Sequence record: MT596505.1
Length of the DNA stretch: 64,000 bases
Origin: Staphylococcus phage vB_SepM_BE08
Strand: one strand, 5' to 3'
Shown: piece by piece, positions 2,445-61,755 of the stretch
Layout of the letters: each line of letters opens with the position of its first letter
Position numbering within the stretch: the stretch's first letter is position 1
Made by a program: the position numbers and the translations under genes
Notes under the pieces: model-generated
The model's database searches: none
Told to the model about the DNA's origin: nothing
What the model saw: the letters and a program-made list of their open reading frames with translations, nothing else

Positions 2445-2966
2445 TTAAACTTCAATAATACATCTCTCTTTAGCTGTTGTAGTTTCCGTTCTGTTTTGGA
2501 ATTGTTTGTTCTCAAAATACATTAAAGTTCCTGTTTCTTTTACTTCACTTGGTAATAGGTTAGGTTTACTTACGCCACTATTAGGAACTAAGTCAATAAC
2601 GAAACCAATTTGTCTATACGTTCCTAATGGTAATTCATTACCTACAACATCTGCTTCAAGATAAACCCATTTAGCTCCTTCATCTTTAGCATTTTCTGTA
2701 GTAACTACTACCCAATCTTTATTACCGTAAGATATTTTTTCTTTATCATCATCTTGTGGTGACTGTGATGGTCTTACTAATGTTGCTCTATGTGTTTTCT
2801 TATATCCAATTATTTCCTGCAATGAAGTCGTTTTCTCGTCTGGTTGTGGTGGGTTAGTTTCACTAGACCACGGTGTTGTACGACCTACTACTAAATAAGT
2901 AGAATTAGCTTTACTAACTAAGTATTTTGCTAACTCTACATGTGAATTATACGTTGCTATAGCCAT
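2445..2966 (-). CDS. virion structural protein of the baseplate/tail-fiber module, function unknown
   Basis: 173-aa ORF in the late operon, directly downstream of a strong promoter (3046..3074) and a conserved leader. Confidence 0.45.
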
Positions 2967-3045
2967 ATTTATTATTTCCTTTCATATTAAGGTTTATCAT
3001 ATTCATAATTAATATAACAGATACTCTAGTTGTATCTTCTACATA

Positions 3046-3074
3046 ATTATATCACAAATTAGTAAAAAATACAA
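3046..3074 (-). promoter_or_regulatory. sigma-A-type promoter (minus strand): -35 TTGTAT, 17-nt spacer, extended -10 TGtgaTATAAT
   Basis: Read directly on the minus strand. Followed by a conserved 23-nt leader element (3001..3023) that is also present at 21949..21971. Confidence 0.55.
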
Positions 3075-3089
3075 CTAAAGATTTAAATT

Positions 3090-5744
3090 TTATTTAATTT
3101 CTACTAAACTTATTTTATTAATCTTAAGTGCTTCATTTATATTAGAATCTGTATATATTTTTACAGATTCATTTTTTCTAATAGAAGTTGTTTTAGCTGT
3201 AAATTCTTTTTCCAATAATCCTTGTGATTTGTCAATCTCTGCTGGATAGAATACTACTTCACTCATACCTGTGTTTGTATTTACAACGTTAACTGTTGTT
3301 ACTTCTGGTGATAATTCTCCTAAAATAGTTACTTTATATTTATGTCCGCTTATAATAGGTTGCTCTAGCTCATATTTAGCTCCGTTTATATAAGATACTA
3401 TCTGAGGTATATTACTATCTTTCAATATATTTACAGTTTCCCTAGGTGCCAAACTTATTTCAGTTTCAAAGAAATTAACTTTAGGATTAGTATCTACATA
3501 ATAACTTGAATCTGTAAATTGTAACTCAGATAACTCATCTAATGTTCTAGCTGAACCTAATCTTAAATCTTCTACATATTTAAGTTTAGAATAATCAATA
3601 TCATCTAATGAAGTATACGTATTTATATCTAATACAGTAGATTTAATAATTTCTCCACTTGATGAATCTATAATACCGTTGTTAGTGTCACTAATAACTT
3701 TTAATGTATCTAAGATTACAGAATACTCAGTATCCATATTAGTCCATAATGCATTAAAATAACCTATAGGCATAGTACTTACATTTTTCTCCCCTATTAA
3801 ATCTCTAATAGGAATTGTATTAATAGAACTTAAGAGAACTTCTGACATAGGTGTTATATCTGAGTAATTTACAAATTTAAGTCCATATAAATCTACTACT
3901 TTATTAGATATGGTTGTTTCTACCTCATTATCCTTTGAGTAATCTATTTTAGTTACAGTTTCCCAGTTCTTACCATCTTCAGAAATCATAATGTATAAAT
4001 CAGGATTAGGTGCATGCGTCACTTCAATTTTAAAATCTTGTATGTCAGTTCTAACACCGTTAAATTTATATATCTTCTCTATAAGGTTGTGCTTATCTGT
4101 ATCTACATTATATCCCTGTCTATACTTTTCTTCAATAGAAGAATAGCTACTTATAATTATAGAGTGCTCTAAATTATTTATATAACTATTTACTGTTTCA
4201 GTATCAGTTAAATACTTAGAGTTTCCATAGATTTCTTGTGGATTTAAATCAATACTCTTATTATCTGTAACTTTTATATACTGCACCTTTTTGTATGATG
4301 GTTGTGATATTATATCTCCATTAGTAGGACTAAATACTTTATAAGCTTCTACATAAAACATACTTTGAATTTCATCATAAAGTTTAACTACAGGAGTATA
4401 AGGATGTATTGTATATACTCCTGGTTCATAATGGTAGAATACCATATCTAAATAGTTTATGTCAAGTGTTACTTCATCATCGTAACCATAAACTTGTAAT
4501 CTAGTAAACATATTTAAATCATCATTTAAATAATCATTTAAATAACCTATACTAAAATCATAATCTTTCTCATAAAAAGAAACAGAATCATAATTTATTG
4601 TATTCCATCTATTTCTATCAAAATCATATATTTGTAGAACAATATTAACGTAATCATTTGGTGGTAAGACAGCTTTCAATGTTAATTTAAAATCAACCTG
4701 ACCTATATAATCAGAAGTCTCTCTTTTAGTTTTGTTTAATAGTACAGGTTTTGTTTTGAGTAAATACTCTCTTATATTAAAATTATTATAAATATACTCT
4801 ATACCCGTATTAGAATTAAATGTTACAGGTATACTAACATTATTTTTTTCATTAGTGTGTAAATAAAAATCAGTACTTAATTCTTCACTTTTATTTTTTA
4901 ATTCTGAAATTATATTTGCTACGGAAGAATTATATTGTGGTGTGTAATTATATGAAGACTTAATACTAACATTATTAAATATTCTCCCTACATTAGAAGA
5001 ACCCGTTAATACGTCTTCACTATTGATTAAACTTTTATTATTAATAAATACAGATTTATAATTAAGACTATCTGTTTTTCTTAATCCTAAATTAATATGT
5101 CCGTATAATAATTCATCATACCCATAGAAATTGGTAATATCTTCATACATTTCTACTTTCATGCTACCATTTAACCATTGATATATTAAGCTACCGTTAT
5201 TAGTAGCCCCGCCATCATAAGTTACATACAATTTAACTCCAGCTGGTTTAAATTCATTTATAATATCTATAATCTCTAAAGGGAAATAATTACCTATTGT
5301 AACATTAATAACTGCAAATCTATAATAGTAACCCATTAATTTGTCATTGCCATTTAATTCAGATTTATTAGTATAAAAAATATTTTTAAATGGTTCATAG
5401 ATACTAATATTAAGGTCATCTCTATCTAAGTAATACTTAATACCTTCAATAATAGCATTATTCGTACCTCTTTTTAAAAGTAAGTATTTAATGATTCTTT
5501 GTCTATATTTATCATCTTCCTCATCTACTTTACGATATACACCAAACCAATCTCCAAATTTATCTAAATACGTTCCTGTAGCACTTTTTAAAGAAGATTG
5601 TAACTTACTCTCAATTGTATCTCTCTCTACCGTATTTAACTCTTCATTTAAAGTGTTTAGTAGTATATAGTTTGTATCTTCATTAAGATTTTTATCTTTT
5701 TTTCTTCTTAATAATGGATGTAAGTTTTTCAAAAAACTACTCAA
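3090..5744 (-). CDS. large baseplate / tail-fiber-like structural protein (884 aa)
   Basis: Long, Asn/Tyr-rich ORF in the baseplate region, downstream of a baseplate-J-like gene. This is typical of myophage baseplate-attached fibre or wedge proteins. Confidence 0.5.
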   Translation of the reverse strand: MSSFLKNLHPLLRRKKDKNLNEDTNYILLNTLNEELNTVERDTIESKLQSSLKSATGTYLDKFGDWFGVYRKVDEEDDKYRQRIIKYLLLKRGTNNAIIEGIKYYLDRDDLNISIYEPFKNIFYTNKSELNGNDKLMGYYYRFAVINVTIGNYFPLEIIDIINEFKPAGVKLYVTYDGGATNNGSLIYQWLNGSMKVEMYEDITNFYGYDELLYGHINLGLRKTDSLNYKSVFINNKSLINSEDVLTGSSNVGRIFNNVSIKSSYNYTPQYNSSVANIISELKNKSEELSTDFYLHTNEKNNVSIPVTFNSNTGIEYIYNNFNIREYLLKTKPVLLNKTKRETSDYIGQVDFKLTLKAVLPPNDYVNIVLQIYDFDRNRWNTINYDSVSFYEKDYDFSIGYLNDYLNDDLNMFTRLQVYGYDDEVTLDINYLDMVFYHYEPGVYTIHPYTPVVKLYDEIQSMFYVEAYKVFSPTNGDIISQPSYKKVQYIKVTDNKSIDLNPQEIYGNSKYLTDTETVNSYINNLEHSIIISSYSSIEEKYRQGYNVDTDKHNLIEKIYKFNGVRTDIQDFKIEVTHAPNPDLYIMISEDGKNWETVTKIDYSKDNEVETTISNKVVDLYGLKFVNYSDITPMSEVLLSSINTIPIRDLIGEKNVSTMPIGYFNALWTNMDTEYSVILDTLKVISDTNNGIIDSSSGEIIKSTVLDINTYTSLDDIDYSKLKYVEDLRLGSARTLDELSELQFTDSSYYVDTNPKVNFFETEISLAPRETVNILKDSNIPQIVSYINGAKYELEQPIISGHKYKVTILGELSPEVTTVNVVNTNTGMSEVVFYPAEIDKSQGLLEKEFTAKTTSIRKNESVKIYTDSNINEALKINKISLVEIK

Positions 5745-17100: not shown

Positions 17101-17600
17101 CATAGGTTAAAATATATAAAACATTTATAAATTTTATCCTTTTATATAGGTCTTAGAAGGATAGTTATTTTTTTAAAAATATAAAGTTGGAATAAAATTT
17201 AAAAACTTATATATTTTAACTTTATTTAGCTATAGAACGCTACTTCTAAGCCCTAGGTCTATTCCTAGTCACTACCTTTCGATACGTGTGTAGACTATTT
17301 GACTTCCCTATTATAGGGTGGGTATTTTTCTTCCACCAATCACTTGTGGTTTTACTCTCCCGTCAGGAGATAGTCGTTGAGGGTCTTCCTTATCTTTTGA
17401 CTTAGGACTTTCCCTGCTAAAGACCGATTACGTATACCTTAGGATTTAACCTTAGCACATCTAACTAATTTTTTCTACTTTCGTTACTTTACCATTTATC
17501 CTTTCGGATTCTGTTTCAGTTTAGTTAGCTTTACGGATTCTTAGCATTTAACACCCGATACTAGCAACTTACGCTACTAGCAAGGCAATTTGTTTGTAAC
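17101..17600 (-). mobile_element. ORF-less group I intron in the tape-measure gene (boundaries approximate, ~±20 nt)
   Basis: The minus-strand RNA has a P7 5' strand (CAACGACUAUC) and a P7 3' strand (AAAUAGUCUAC). It is GC-enriched and structured, and has extensive similarity to the intron at 24690..25154. With these boundaries the length (500 nt) keeps the exon 1 and exon 2 frames continuous across a retained UGU codon. Confidence 0.65.
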
Positions 17601-24689: not shown

Positions 24690-25154
24690 CTTATGATACC
24701 ATATCATTTGTATTTTGTCAAGATAAATAGACCAAGAAATCAATCTCGGTCTACTAAATAGTAATGATTACGCTTTATCTGATGCGGTTAAATATGAAAA
24801 CGATTTATTTATTTACAAACGCTACTTTGTAAACCTGTGTCAATTCACATGCACTAGCTTTCACTACGTGGCTAGACTATTTGTTATCCCTAATTATTAG
24901 GGTAAGGATTTTTCTTCTCCCAATTACTTGGAGCTTTACTTCCGTCTTGTAACGGAATAGTCGTTGAACGTTTTCCTTAGGAATTACTTTCCCTTAGGAC
25001 TTTCGATGCTATACACCCATTACCTCAGTACTTAGGTTTTAACCTTATACCATCTTAACCATTTTTTCTACTTTCGTAACCTTCTAGTTTATTGTTTCCA
25101 ATTCCTATGTGGTTGGTTAAGCTTTAGAAGTTTCATAGCAATTAACCCTTCACT
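24690..25154 (-). mobile_element. group I intron at the 3' end of the tail tube gene (boundaries approximate)
   Basis: P7 5' strand UCAACGACUAUUCC and P7 3' strand AAAUAGUCUAGCC. Long blocks are shared with the tape-measure intron (for example CGAAAGUAGAAAAAAU and GGUUAAAaCCUAAG). The region is GC-enriched. Confidence 0.6.
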
Positions 25155-60026: not shown

Positions 60027-60068
60027 GTTATATTAACCATAGATAAAAAATAGATTGGAGACATGATA

Positions 60069-60410
60069 ATGGCAAAAGTTTTAAGATTGTATGATAGTAC
60101 AGATAAGCTACTTGCAACGTCTGAAGAAGTTACTTCTAATTCAGCATCTGTTCGTATTGATGACCTTAAGCCTGATACAACTTATGAAGCTGGTGACTTT
60201 AAAGTTGCTTGGGTTATTAATGATTCAGAATCCAGTAAGATAGATGTTCCAGGATTCAAAACATTACCTTCTACAAGTGGTAATACAGATGATTCAGTAA
60301 GTCATACTTTAACATTTAACATGTTAAACTTTGATGATAATAACATCACTATAAGTGATGAAGAGCCTGAAGATAAAAATAAAATCTGGTTTAAACCAGT
60401 AGAACAATAA
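60069..60410 (+). CDS. small beta-rich protein, paralog of the 61465..61755 gene
   Basis: MAKVLRLYDSTDKLLATSEE ... DLKPDTTYEAGDFKVAWV aligns with MAKKLVAYNKQGEKLATGEP ... GLTPETTYAKGDYQVAI. Confidence 0.4.
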   Translation: MAKVLRLYDSTDKLLATSEEVTSNSASVRIDDLKPDTTYEAGDFKVAWVINDSESSKIDVPGFKTLPSTSGNTDDSVSHTLTFNMLNFDDNNITISDEEPEDKNKIWFKPVEQ

Positions 60411-60429: not shown

Positions 60430-61008
60430 ATGGCAAATTTATTACCAAGTGTATTTAACAAAGAGACAGGTAAATGGGAAACAATTATTGCTAGACCTGT
60501 AGCACAAGAAGTATTTAAAATTATGAAAGAGGATTATTTAAGAAGCAAAGGTGATATTGGTTATATCTTTATTTCACATGATGAAGGGGATATGCCTGTA
60601 AATTTAATATTATTATATGATACATCTAAAACAGGAACTGAAGTAGTAGATAACCCTGAACGTGTTAAAGAAAATATTAAGTTTAATCTAGACCAATACC
60701 TATTAACTAAAAATAATAATGCTAAGCAATTCCGTATATCAGAATTCAGACAAAGAATTGAAGATTTACATTTAGTTGATATTGATTCTGAATTCTATGT
60801 AGAAGTTATAGATACTGAAGGAGAGAAACACGTTATACCTTCAACAAAAGCATTAACAAATAACTTTGAAATCACAAACGCTCTCTTAGAGGCAGGGAAT
60901 GAAATTAAAGTTAAATATTTCTACAATGGTAATCCTATAGATGACTTCATGTTAGATAAGAAAGTAACAGAAGAAAATAGAGATAGATACCCTAGTGAAT
61001 CACAATAA
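60430..61008 (+). CDS. hypothetical protein
   Basis: 192-aa ORF. Confidence 0.35.
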   Translation: MANLLPSVFNKETGKWETIIARPVAQEVFKIMKEDYLRSKGDIGYIFISHDEGDMPVNLILLYDTSKTGTEVVDNPERVKENIKFNLDQYLLTKNNNAKQFRISEFRQRIEDLHLVDIDSEFYVEVIDTEGEKHVIPSTKALTNNFEITNALLEAGNEIKVKYFYNGNPIDDFMLDKKVTEENRDRYPSESQ

Positions 61009-61031
61009 TAAATTATTTTTTTAAAATAAAC

Positions 61032-61060
61032 TTGTAAAAATAACAAATGTATGTTATAAT
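61032..61060 (+). promoter_or_regulatory. sigma-A promoter: TTGTAA, 17-nt spacer, TATAAT
   Basis: Precedes a ~350-nt ORF-free structured segment. Confidence 0.5.
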
Positions 61061-61061
61061 G

Positions 61062-61414
61062 TGATTATCAGTATCCTAACACCTCTTAATAGTGTGAAAC
61101 ACAGGGTGCAGTTTTTACTTAAAACCTTTTAAGGTTTGACTTACTAGAGAGTACAGTAAGTTGCTTGCGTATTGGCTTTATAAATACGTGTTGGTTCCGA
61201 CATGAAGCTTCTTCATTGTCCGTACTCTATTGACCTATCTACCATGTTGTAGAAAAGGACTACATTAACGTTAATAGAAAATGACCTTAAACCTGCAATT
61301 ACTTATCATAGGAAAACTATGATAAGTCCCTGCTATATAGGTATACTTTAATCAATGTAACCTAGGGACATACGATTGAGTATACTATTATATAGTATAC
61401 ATTGCAGGTTTTTT
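61062..61414 (+). ncRNA. ~350-nt structured RNA candidate (stand-alone sRNA or a long structured leader)
   Basis: No ORF and elevated GC. Several perfect hairpins: ACUUACU-agagaguac-AGUAAGU, ACUUAUCAUAG-gaaaa-CUAUGAUAAGU and GUAUACUAU-ua-AUAGUAUAC. Ends with CCUGCAAU ... AUUGCAGG plus U6. Confidence 0.45.
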
Positions 61415-61464
61415 ATATAATTAATGTTATATTATCTAGTGTAAGAAAAAATATACGATAAGGG

Positions 61465-61755
61465 ATGAATAACAACATGGCAAAAAAATTAGTAGCTTAT
61501 AACAAACAAGGTGAGAAATTAGCAACAGGAGAACCAGTAGAATCAGGTAAAGCGACAGTACAATTAACTGGTCTAACACCAGAAACAACTTATGCTAAAG
61601 GTGATTACCAAGTAGCAATTGATGAAGATGGTCGTGAAGGTGGCAAAGTAGACGTACCTGAATTTACAACAAAAGCTAAACCAGTTGCGGAACCAGCAAA
61701 TGTAGAAACTAGAGAAACAACAGATACAACAGCGGACATCTCAGCGGAAGTATAA
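61465..61755 (+). CDS. small beta-rich protein, paralog of the 60069..60410 gene
   Basis: See the paralog. The likely true start is the ATG at 61477 (MAKKLVAY). Confidence 0.4.
   Translation: MNNNMAKKLVAYNKQGEKLATGEPVESGKATVQLTGLTPETTYAKGDYQVAIDEDGREGGKVDVPEFTTKAKPVAEPANVETRETTDTTADISAEV

Follow-up and report, generated by a model that had tools for sequence, protein, structure and literature searches.

The 64,000-nucleotide (nt) stretch of DNA from Staphylococcus phage vB_SepM_BE08 analyzed here (sequence record MT596505.1; hereafter the window) contains, at 61064-61414, a predicted and hitherto unannotated Sepunavirus gene for a non-coding RNA (ncRNA) of ~345 nt. Embedded in this RNA, as its most conserved hairpin, is a 25-nt element of a covarying family that, in bacteria and in phage P1, forms part of a small RNA fixed in place beside the gene pair rlfA-rlfB, a candidate defense system. 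The window carries the hairpin without the gene pair, and the phage RNA may be a molecular mimic of the defense-linked small RNA.

The source phage is a Sepunavirus, a Twortvirinae myovirus of Staphylococcus epidermidis. Conservation within the genus was drawn from 15 records: identity over the segment 60900-61550 is 99.4% with vB_SepM_BE25 and 94-99% with 14 further Sepunavirus records, and the gap holding the RNA is unannotated in all of them. For the RNA itself, conservation within the genus is 92-99%. A preliminary description of the region had seen in it a structured RNA running from promoter to terminator, to be understood either as an unannotated small RNA or as a long leader of the next gene, and the features on which it relied are borne out. 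The TTGTAA-17-TATAAT promoter is present at 61032-61060, with a TGn extension in addition, and predicts a transcription start at ~61064-61067. The plus strand from 61009 to 61464 is free of any open reading frame (ORF) of at least 25 amino acids (aa). The enrichment in GC is real but modest (0.338 against 0.291 for the whole window), and the structure is strong, with a minimum free energy of −92.9 kcal/mol (z = −4.5) that none of 100 shuffled sequences equals. The closing element CCUGCAAU/AUUGCAGG (61292-61299 with 61401-61408), followed by the U6 tract at 61409-61414, is likewise present, and it is conserved.

These features are insufficient on their own. Promoter-like hexamers occur at chance frequency in this AT-rich DNA (27 such sites in 4 kb, where 25 are expected), so the window promoter taken alone is no better than chance, and because the minus strand folds nearly as well as the plus strand (z = −4.1), folding alone does not give the strand. 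It is therefore the comparison with related phages that carries the case for an RNA gene.

Beyond Sepunavirus, the segment 61120-61418 shows 88-93% DNA identity to Alsa_1-4 and PG-2021_27, which are Twortvirinae of other genera. The conservation covers the 3′ 300 nt of the RNA (93% identity to Alsa_3 over 300 nt) and ends with it, the flanks giving no megablast match in any of these phages. The adjacent transglycosylase is only 55% identical at the protein level between the window and Alsa_3, and the gene downstream of the Alsa_3 RNA does not align with its counterpart in the window and is unrelated to it. Because the RNA is more conserved than its neighbors and the downstream genes differ, the comparison points to a stand-alone gene and not a leader. 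Of the two options in the preliminary description, that of an unannotated small RNA is accordingly the one that fits an own promoter, a terminator kept in all the relatives and an RNA far more conserved than its surroundings. An equivalent strong promoter stands at the same distance (~10 nt) 5′ of the first hairpin in Alsa, PG-2021_27, Kayvirus and Silviavirus phages, and the 51 nt around the window promoter are 82% identical to the region of the phage K lncRNA2 promoter, which has been classed as typical of early promoters (PMC7698491).

The comparative alignment that had been suggested as a check revealed compensatory changes as well as conservation. In a consensus fold derived from 10 sequences (90 pairs, mean identity 92%), compensatory double changes affect four of the 90 pairs, namely 61169-61187, 61235-61257, 61353-61374 and 61356-61370; the second of these lies in the core hairpin, where PG-2021_27 has U-A in place of C-G. 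Several further pairs switch between G-C and G-U, and almost none is broken. The closing stem of the 3′ domain keeps its 11 pairs across the 10 sequences with the exception of a single cell, and a terminator scan misses this element because its stem encloses two hairpins. The outer stem of the 5′ hairpin P1, compared between lineages by eye, differs elsewhere yet stays complementary (GGUUACC/GGUAACC in Alsa, GUUAAC/GUUAAC in S25-4 and GGGUUA/UAACCC in the IMG/VR contig L095), and its inner stem becomes CGC/GCG or AGC/GCU while the loop sequence is conserved. Helix P0, which encloses the core hairpin, is specific to the Sepunavirus/Alsa lineage; most other members of the hairpin family have a separate hairpin, P2, in its place. 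An alternative 3′ fold resembling a cloverleaf or four-way junction (UCCCU/AGGGA plus a 9-bp 3′ hairpin) was rejected on account of an uncompensated CCC-to-AAU change in SEP1 and a 7-nt deletion in PG-2021_1 and 80A. The predicted features are collected in Table 1.

Table 1. Predicted features of the ncRNA locus and the gene that follows it (window coordinates).
Feature	Coordinates	Strand	Remarks
Sigma-70-type promoter	61032-61060	+	−35 TTGTAA 61032-61037; extended −10 TGn 61052-61054; −10 TATAAT 61055-61060; 17-nt spacer
Predicted primary transcript, non-coding, ~345-350 nt	61064-61414	+	No ORF, fold z −4.5, conservation; ends deduced from sequence
5′ hairpin P1	61071-61109	+	Outer stem GUAUCCU/AGGGUGC, inner stem CAC/GUG; conserved loop segments CCUCUU and AAACAC
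Hairpin Ha	61138-61162	+	GACUUACU...AGUAAGUU; 9 of 9 pairs invariant in 10 sequences
Hairpin Hb (GUUGC..GGCUUU module)	61163-61195	+	Pair 61169-61187 is A-U in 7, G-C in 2 and U-A in 1 sequence (compensatory)
Hairpin Hc (GACAUG...CAUUGUC)	61199-61220	+	Pairs invariant in consensus fold
Core domain	61226-61279	+	Helix P0 (61226-61233 with 61271-61279) enclosing the core hairpin and an 11-12-nt 3′ bulge with UUAACGUUAA
Core hairpin	61234-61258	+	CCU-A-UCUAC-CAUGUU-GUAGA-AA-AGG; orphan copy of the RlfAB-associated small-RNA hairpin
3′ domain, branched intrinsic terminator	61289-61414	+	Closing stem AAACCUGCAAU 61289-61299 with AUUGCAGGUUU 61401-61411, running into U tract 61409-61414
Hairpin A, perfect 11 bp	61301-61327	+	ACUUAUCAUAG-GAAAA-CUAUGAUAAGU; one U-A to U-G change, otherwise invariant
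Hairpin B, long and irregular	61331-61397	+	Compensatory pairs 61353-61374 (C-G, U-A, U-G) and 61356-61370 (U-A, C-G)
DVP-motif virion protein gene, 92 aa	61477-61755	+	Context, outside the RNA; start as in Terranova annotation; paralogue of 60063-60410

A 44-nt core of the RNA, 61230-61273, extends the family further, matching large ORF-free gaps in Kayvirus, Silviavirus and Mammaliicoccus phages. The phage K gap comprises, in order, a promoter, the 5′ hairpin, a TEG147-like piece, core hairpin, hairpin, a transfer RNA (tRNA)-like element, tRNA-Met, lncRNA1 (~530 nt), terminator and gp032, the last encoding a DVP-motif virion protein like that downstream in the window. The Romulus module is a solitary one, preceded by a nuclease gene and succeeded by an annotated terminator and the annotated promoter for ArpR. 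The homologous Kayvirus module lies in TU8, a unit whose transcription is documented by RNA-seq (PMC7698491, PMC11598898, PMC9241854); lncRNA1 and lncRNA2 rank among the most abundant phage RNAs in Kayvirus (PMC7698491, PMC9241854, PMC11598898). The window RNA and the shorter versions in Kayvirus TU8 and Silviavirus have the 5′ hairpin P1, the core hairpin and the type of strong promoter in common, and the window displays the features of the Twortvirinae 5′ ncRNA module as a whole, i.e., a strong sigma-70 promoter, a hairpin P1 with the loop GCCUCUU..AAUG..AAACAC, and the core hairpin 100-260 nt downstream. The surroundings are also alike, since the module precedes a DVP-motif virion gene in Kayvirus. 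The remaining parts differ: the Kayvirus and Silviavirus modules have a TEG147-like segment and end in a tRNA-like element, in contrast to the branched terminator domain of the window, whose middle hairpins and 3′ domain are common only to Alsa and PG-2021_27, and the published Kayvirus lncRNA1, downstream of tRNA-Met, has no detectable counterpart in the window. The comparison thus depicts a modular RNA, in which hairpin P1 and the core hairpin are common to Kayvirus, Silviavirus and an unrelated IMG/VR phage, and the middle and 3′ domains are lineage-specific.

Several further observations concern these relatives. Immediately 5′ of the core hairpin of Kayvirus S25-4 (L006 2946-3005), a match to TEG147 (RF03535), in Rfam a chromosomal small RNA of S. 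aureus, scores 44 bits (E = 4.5e-6), below the 56-bit threshold; Rfam gives no such match in the window. The tRNA-like element between the core module and tRNA-Met in phage K (L010 ~1709-1775) has the acceptor stem AUCCUGAG/CUCAGGAU and the T arm GAGGUUCGAGUCCUC, is not called by ARAGORN, and is also found in Romulus (L009) and S25-4 (L006). Alsa_3 (L001 2880-3000) and PG-2021_27 (L003) carry, relative to the window, an insertion of ~100 nt that by eye resembles a second copy of the GUUGCC..GGCUUU hairpin module; modules resembling hairpin Hb can be discerned by eye both in this insertion and in Kayvirus lncRNA1, where a string like that of the insertion module occurs. Three ORFs of ~30 aa have been annotated automatically on the strand opposite the Alsa RNA. 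The 3′ end of Kayvirus lncRNA1 (L006 3416-3524) weakly resembles the DUF3800-I RNA (36 bits, against a threshold of 44).

The core hairpin proved to be far more widespread than the rest of the RNA. A scan of IMG/VR with the pattern ATCTRCCAN{3,4}GTAGAAARRG matched at least 120 viral contigs, which form 68 sequence clusters. Among the matches listed, the two outer-helix pairs that the pattern leaves free covary, 64 of the 68 clusters being fully complementary, with CCU/AGG in 27 clusters, CUC/GAG in 18 and CUU/AAG in 18; the third outer pair is C-G, its G being fixed by the pattern. A second scan that left two upper-stem pairs free found that these covary too (UCCAC/GUGGA, UCCGC/GCGGA, UCUGC/GCAGA, UCACC/GGUGA). 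Covariation of outer pairs and upper stem, which extends over the 68 viral clusters and 60 metagenome loci described below, surrounds a set of invariant parts: the internal loop, in which one A faces AA or AG, the neighboring U-A and C-G pairs, and the apical C-CAYGN-G. A second hairpin, often a terminator, usually follows ~4 nt 3′ of the first.

The viral copies keep distinctive company. Genes for tRNAs are present at 31 of the 68 cluster loci among the matches listed, with the hairpin on the same strand in all 31, and a tRNA often begins 47-64 nt downstream of the hairpin or ends 4-13 nt upstream. The loci also hold ROOL (two), GOLLD (one), drum (one) and, directly downstream of the hairpin, a permuted transfer-messenger RNA (tmRNA; one). 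The contig L095, from an unrelated phage, presents a P1-like hairpin, a hairpin, the core hairpin, P2 and tRNA-Pro, which amounts to a miniature of the Twortvirinae architecture. With a covarying outer helix, no rlfAB nearby and an orientation shared with the phage genes, the window copy fits this orphan, tRNA-array type; ARAGORN finds neither tRNA nor tmRNA in the window, although the Kayvirus homologue does precede tRNA-Met. Self-BLAST detected no second copy of the RNA in the window. Searches of Rfam 15 at gathering and at permissive thresholds covered the window, the Twortvirinae loci, phage P1, the viral loci and the cognate loci, and neither the RNA nor the hairpin matched any of its families, so the proposed check against known RNA families returned none, and a literature search on the hairpin sequence found no description of it.

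Individual loci offer details of their own. In the IMG/VR contig 3300042902_000064 (L099 12641-13051), the hairpin and P2 lie directly upstream of a permuted two-piece tmRNA (RF04321, 107.8 bits; ARAGORN tag ANDNIYALVA), and the contig has 22 tRNAs and a GOLLD RNA. The ROOL RNAs are at L116 10510-11086 (298 bits) and L089 2879-3444 (283 bits), in tRNA arrays that also carry an orphan hairpin. A full drum RNA (77 bits, L008 3858-3975) is located in Mammaliicoccus phage phi116, in the same non-coding/tRNA region and 850 nt from the core hairpin.

A number of identities were considered for the hairpin and set aside. It is not generally a part of tmRNA, which follows it in L099 only. A recoding signal linked to stop codons does not fit, because UUG, UUA and CAU precede the hairpin as well as the frequent UAG and UGA, and the UAG of the cognates described below stands at the transcript start. 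Pseudoknot pairing of the apical loop with the conserved AGCAU 3′ of P2 is contradicted by the middle base of the loop, which varies without compensation. The layouts of the hammerhead, group II domain V, tetraloop receptors, k-turns and anticodon-arm or D-arm mimics do not fit either. An antitermination RNA like HK022 put, suggested by the terminator context and a position upstream of terminase in eight loci, is less likely given the tight linkage to rlfAB, to which we now turn.

A pattern scan of bacterial genomes yielded at least 120 matches, and 61 of the 120 listed are true instances, from many phyla. Many of these are tiny units made up of a consensus promoter ending ~8 nt before UAG-CUC, the hairpin, UAACG, a GC-rich terminator hairpin and AGCxUUU. 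In 22 of the 61 listed instances the unit is convergent to a two-gene operon, the stop codon of the second gene lying 6-53 nt away. The first gene encodes a ~240-aa DUF3800 protein (Pfam E = 2e-15; PADLOC PDC-M04A E = 2e-96), the second a ~160-aa protein without a Pfam family (PDC-M04B E = 5e-45), and PADLOC lists pairs of this rlfA-rlfB type as the candidate defense system PDC-M04. Phage P1 (AF234172, L133) has the same convergent arrangement as the bacteria: an unannotated hairpin plus terminator at L133 2601-2670, corresponding to ~52.88-52.95 kb of AF234172, in the gap between pmgF and rlfB, faces rlfB (2672-3136) and rlfA (3136-3840) on the opposite strand, and the P1 RlfA protein is 53% identical to the bacterial DUF3800 proteins of the operon.

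The association was confirmed reciprocally. RlfA homology was the sole criterion for picking 80 metagenome loci; the hairpin is present in 60 of them, in each case on the strand opposite to that of rlfA and ~510-570 nt beyond this gene. Fourteen of the 20 loci without the hairpin end too early, which leaves 60 of 66 loci with enough flank, and we therefore regard the small RNA as an integral third component of the rlfAB module. It is unannotated, and a literature search found no description of it; a further search found no paper on PDC-M04, and a sequence search of the PDB found no solved structure related to RlfA or RlfB. DUF3800 proteins adopt an RNase H-like fold and have been linked repeatedly to ncRNAs, type VII retrons and Cas12a2/a3 (PMC5737381, PMC7736814, PMC10910872, PMC13594972). 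Stand-alone copies of the small RNA were also noticed in the genome contigs L349, L343, L262 and L278, where other neighbors take the place of rlfAB. One of these is a different DUF3800-like protein, starting MPQYFFVDESG; others appear by eye to be a large Schlafen/AlbA-like protein and a restriction-type helicase, which would fit defense-island contexts.

A covariance model, R1, built only from 24 small RNAs adjacent to rlfAB gives a single significant match in the 64-kb window, at 61230-61263 (24.6 bits, E = 8.7e-5). R1 also matches the homologous positions in Alsa, PG-2021_27, phi116, Kayvirus (K, S25-4, YCP, PG35) and the HOB prophage, and weakly in Romulus (12 bits). Like the rlfAB small RNAs, that of phage P1 included, the window RNA has a 3-bp outer helix, a 1×2 internal loop (A facing AA or AG), the conserved U-A and C-G pairs, a 5-bp upper stem that covaries and the apical C-CAYGN-G. 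In contrast to it, the rlfAB small RNAs are ~65 nt long, have their own promoter ~8 nt upstream and a terminator hairpin GCCGUCC..GGGCGGC, and abut rlfB; in the RNA of ~345 nt the hairpin is followed by ACUACAUUAACGUUAAUAG inside helix P0. Searches of the window and of the Twortvirinae loci with profile hidden Markov models of RlfA and RlfB were negative throughout, and the two proteins are absent from ~200 viral loci, except those that are P1-like and L032. Since RlfA and RlfB, the cognate outer helix and the UAACG-P2-AGC part are all missing, the window hairpin is best classified as an orphan phage copy and not as an rlfAB cognate.

What might such a copy do? Our tentative preference is for a trans-acting decoy or mimic of whatever binds the core hairpin, a function we consider possible rather than probable. 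The mechanism that we infer from the conserved promoter-to-terminator RNA, the covarying hairpin family, the rlfAB linkage and the orphan status of the copy would run as follows. The phage RNA would be made early and in abundance, and would present the hairpin to the protein that recognizes it, most plausibly of the DUF3800 type or a related host or prophage factor. In this way it would serve as a decoy, or as a mimic of an antitoxin, and weaken a system of the host or of a prophage, and its remaining domains would provide stability, a defined 3′ end or additional binding sites. In a wider form, which we put forward only with considerable reserve, the hairpin would define a class of small RNAs across bacterial phyla, the third component of the RlfA-RlfB module (that of phage P1 included) in the role of antitoxin, regulator or cofactor; the orphan copies, carried by phages of many lineages (within abundant early ncRNAs in the staphylococcal Twortvirinae, within tRNA arrays beside ROOL, GOLLD and drum elsewhere), would then serve in RNA counter-defense, and the ncRNA islands would be anti-defense loci.

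There is also a counterpart on the host side. The temperate S. epidermidis phages HOB 14.1.R1 (L005 2420-2700) and BE20 (L437 3001-3283) encode, at an accessory locus between endolysin and integrase, a small RNA of ~270 nt that runs from promoter to terminator and has 31 nt identical to the window RNA, the CCU/AGG outer helix included; a resident counterpart with exactly the variant of the window therefore exists in the host population. On Staphylococcus plasmids, this prophage small RNA has a partial match only. Strings resembling its flanks were seen by eye in L256, a contig labelled Rheinheimera tilapiae, where contamination or transfer is possible.

Precedent for such a role comes from RNAs with experimentally demonstrated activity: pseudo-ToxI of phage PhiTE counters ToxIN, and RNA anti-CRISPRs are solitary repeat units. 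By analogy, the phage RNA may be another case in which the RNA part of a host module occurs alone in a phage under its own promoter. The analogy has a limit, in that pseudo-ToxI and the RNA anti-CRISPRs closely match their cognate RNA, whereas the window copy differs from its cognates in the outer helix.

That difference is one of several considerations that weigh against mimicry. The outer helix is CUC/GAG in 26 of 26 cognates from genomes and P1-like elements and in all but 3 of the 60 metagenome cognates (those three having UUC/GAG), compared with CCU/AGG in the window, and three cognate features, the UAACG linker, the GC-rich P2 hairpin and the AGCxUUU tail, are missing from the window RNA. 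RlfAB/PDC-M04 is no more than a candidate defense system and a putative binding partner of the small RNA. A scan of Staphylococcus plasmids and phages found no RlfA homologue. The ends of the RNA are deduced from sequence in every Sepunavirus, and at 92% mean identity the divergence is low, so that covariation support for the whole fold is modest, being supportive rather than overwhelming. Finally, unrelated RNAs could all be using the hairpin as a generic element of structure or processing.

This last point can be developed into the most serious competitor of the decoy or mimic, which we hold to be doubtful but worth careful consideration. The RNA would be a stable housekeeping ncRNA of the phage, with the hairpin as a generic module that either is recognized by a universal host factor (for example, an RNase, RNA polymerase or an enzyme of tRNA processing) or serves folding or stability, and the RlfAB small RNA, the tRNA arrays and the window RNA would use it independently, without a counter-defense role. 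A universal partner would be expected to produce the observed range of motif hosts, from Staphylococcus to Proteobacteria, Bacteroidota and candidate phyla, and the variability of the outer helix in phages also suits this idea. The hairpin fills a tRNA-sized slot in tRNA arrays, from which it would be freed by tRNA processing; it is habitually succeeded by another hairpin, often a terminator, and keeps company with ROOL, GOLLD, tmRNA and tRNAs. However, so close a bond with a single gene pair, at a fixed position and orientation in 60 of 66 rlfA loci, would be surprising for a generic module, and the invariant internal and apical loops point to specific recognition. We know of no universal host factor that recognizes such a hairpin.

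The RNA is unlikely to be a decaying remnant of a tRNA/ncRNA island that is transcribed without a function of its own. Such an origin would be suggested by the Kayvirus module, which precedes the tRNA-like element, tRNA-Met and lncRNA1, and by an architecture that is modular and variable between genera, with insertions or duplications in Alsa and loss of the tRNA-like part. Decay is nevertheless hard to reconcile with 88-99% nucleotide conservation across genera in which protein identity falls to 55%, with substitutions that preserve pairing, or with the retention of promoter and terminator.

Quite unlikely, too, is a long structured 5′ leader or riboregulator, of attenuator or riboswitch-like type, for the DVP-motif gene at 61477. 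The RNA does lie directly upstream of this gene on the same strand, as its Kayvirus homologue also precedes gp032, and a structured RNA ending in a terminator is the usual layout of an attenuator. The features downstream of the RNA family nonetheless differ among Alsa_3, Romulus and Kayvirus, which speaks against the second option of the preliminary description: the Alsa_3 gene is unrelated, the Romulus RNA ends in its annotated terminator ahead of the annotated ArpR promoter, and a tRNA and the 530-nt lncRNA separate the Kayvirus module from gp032. The consensus structure contains no evident alternative anti-terminator fold, and no riboswitch or cis-regulatory family in Rfam matches.

An RNA anti-CRISPR-like mimic of a Cas12a-type repeat is very unlikely. 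Compared by eye with the LbCas12a crRNA (CRISPR RNA) handle, UCUAC-N5-GUAGA agrees at ~15 of 20 positions, but the positions critical in such handles (U-1, U-10 and A-18) differ in the window hairpin. Cas12a is not known as a Staphylococcus system. The upper stem, fixed in Cas12a repeats, covaries here, and the enclosing 3-bp helix and the A/AA internal loop are without a Cas12a counterpart. Proteins combining TPR and DUF3800 do accompany Cas12a2/a3 (PMC10910872, PMC13594972). As for a DNA-level element (a replication, packaging or recombination site) or a very small protein gene, as might be suspected from the good folding of both strands and the 30-aa ORFs called automatically on the opposite strand in Alsa phages, it is highly improbable given compensatory changes with G-U pairs that fit the plus strand only, a promoter and terminator oriented with that strand, a motif always co-oriented with tRNAs, and the lack of a conserved ORF.

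Other parts of the preliminary description concern the surroundings of the RNA. It placed the RNA between paralogous small genes; the genes at 60063-60410 and 61465/61477-61755 are indeed paralogous (45% identity, E = 9e-17), but a 192-aa gene (60430-61008) intervenes between the first of them and the RNA. For the downstream gene, the ATG at 61477 is a likelier start than 61465, matching the annotation of Terranova_033 and its ribosome-binding site. The segment 45428-46072 on the plus strand is homologous to Kayvirus lncRNA2 (nhmmer E = 1.7e-32; Rfam finds nothing there) and is probably the "first" promoter-to-terminator RNA to which the description alluded in calling the present one the second. 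Two further ORF-free, GC-enriched segments at ~17220-17568 and ~24800-25154 are 71% identical to each other over 345 nt; they have no Rfam match, group I introns included, and could be paralogous introns or minus-strand ncRNAs.

Among established RNA classes, the closest in kind are the RNA motifs associated with DUF3800 genes, i.e., DUF3800-I to XI, drum and skipping-rope, described by Weinberg et al. in 2017 (PMC5737381). Like the window and rlfAB hairpin RNAs, these are conserved small structured RNAs, often ending in a terminator, with DUF3800 genes in either orientation, although none of the Rfam 15 models matches the hairpin in the window, phage P1 or the cognate loci. The kind of object is thus already known, both from these DUF3800-associated, terminator-ended small RNAs and from the Kayvirus ncRNAs. 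No earlier description seems to exist of the motif itself, of its fixed place beside rlfAB (in phage P1 as well) or of the orphan copies within Twortvirinae ncRNAs and phage tRNA arrays, although the motif may be equal to one of the 2017 DUF3800 motifs that is outside Rfam. The only Rfam match in the window at E values up to 10 is Listeria rli62 (RF01486), a weak full-length match to 61072-61212 with a similar UGAC-hairpin and GGUUUAUAA..GUUGGUxCCGA strings; at 17.4 bits (E = 1.4), compared with a gathering threshold of 83, it is no evidence of membership. ROOL and GOLLD resemble the core hairpin in being located in phage tRNA arrays, together with its orphan copies; their Rfam models do not match the window, and the window RNA is much smaller. 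The authors of the Kayvirus study likewise drew the analogy to ROOL and GOLLD (PMC9241854).

These comparisons define the significance of the hairpin. In only 25 nt it joins an early ncRNA of therapeutic-type staphylococcal phages, hundreds of tRNA arrays in phages and a three-part module of DUF3800 protein, partner and small RNA, exemplified by rlfA-rlfB of phage P1. If mimicry is correct, it would represent a widespread RNA-based anti-defense strategy with a bearing on host range in phage therapy; if not, there is still a new and widespread RNA motif with strong covariation, together with a correction to the annotation of Sepunavirus, Kayvirus and P1 genomes. The Kayvirus lncRNAs, ROOL, GOLLD, drum and the eleven DUF3800 motifs have for years been abundant, conserved RNAs without a function. 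The window RNA provides a handle on them, and the role of these RNAs can now be tested with P1/E. coli genetics and S. epidermidis phages.

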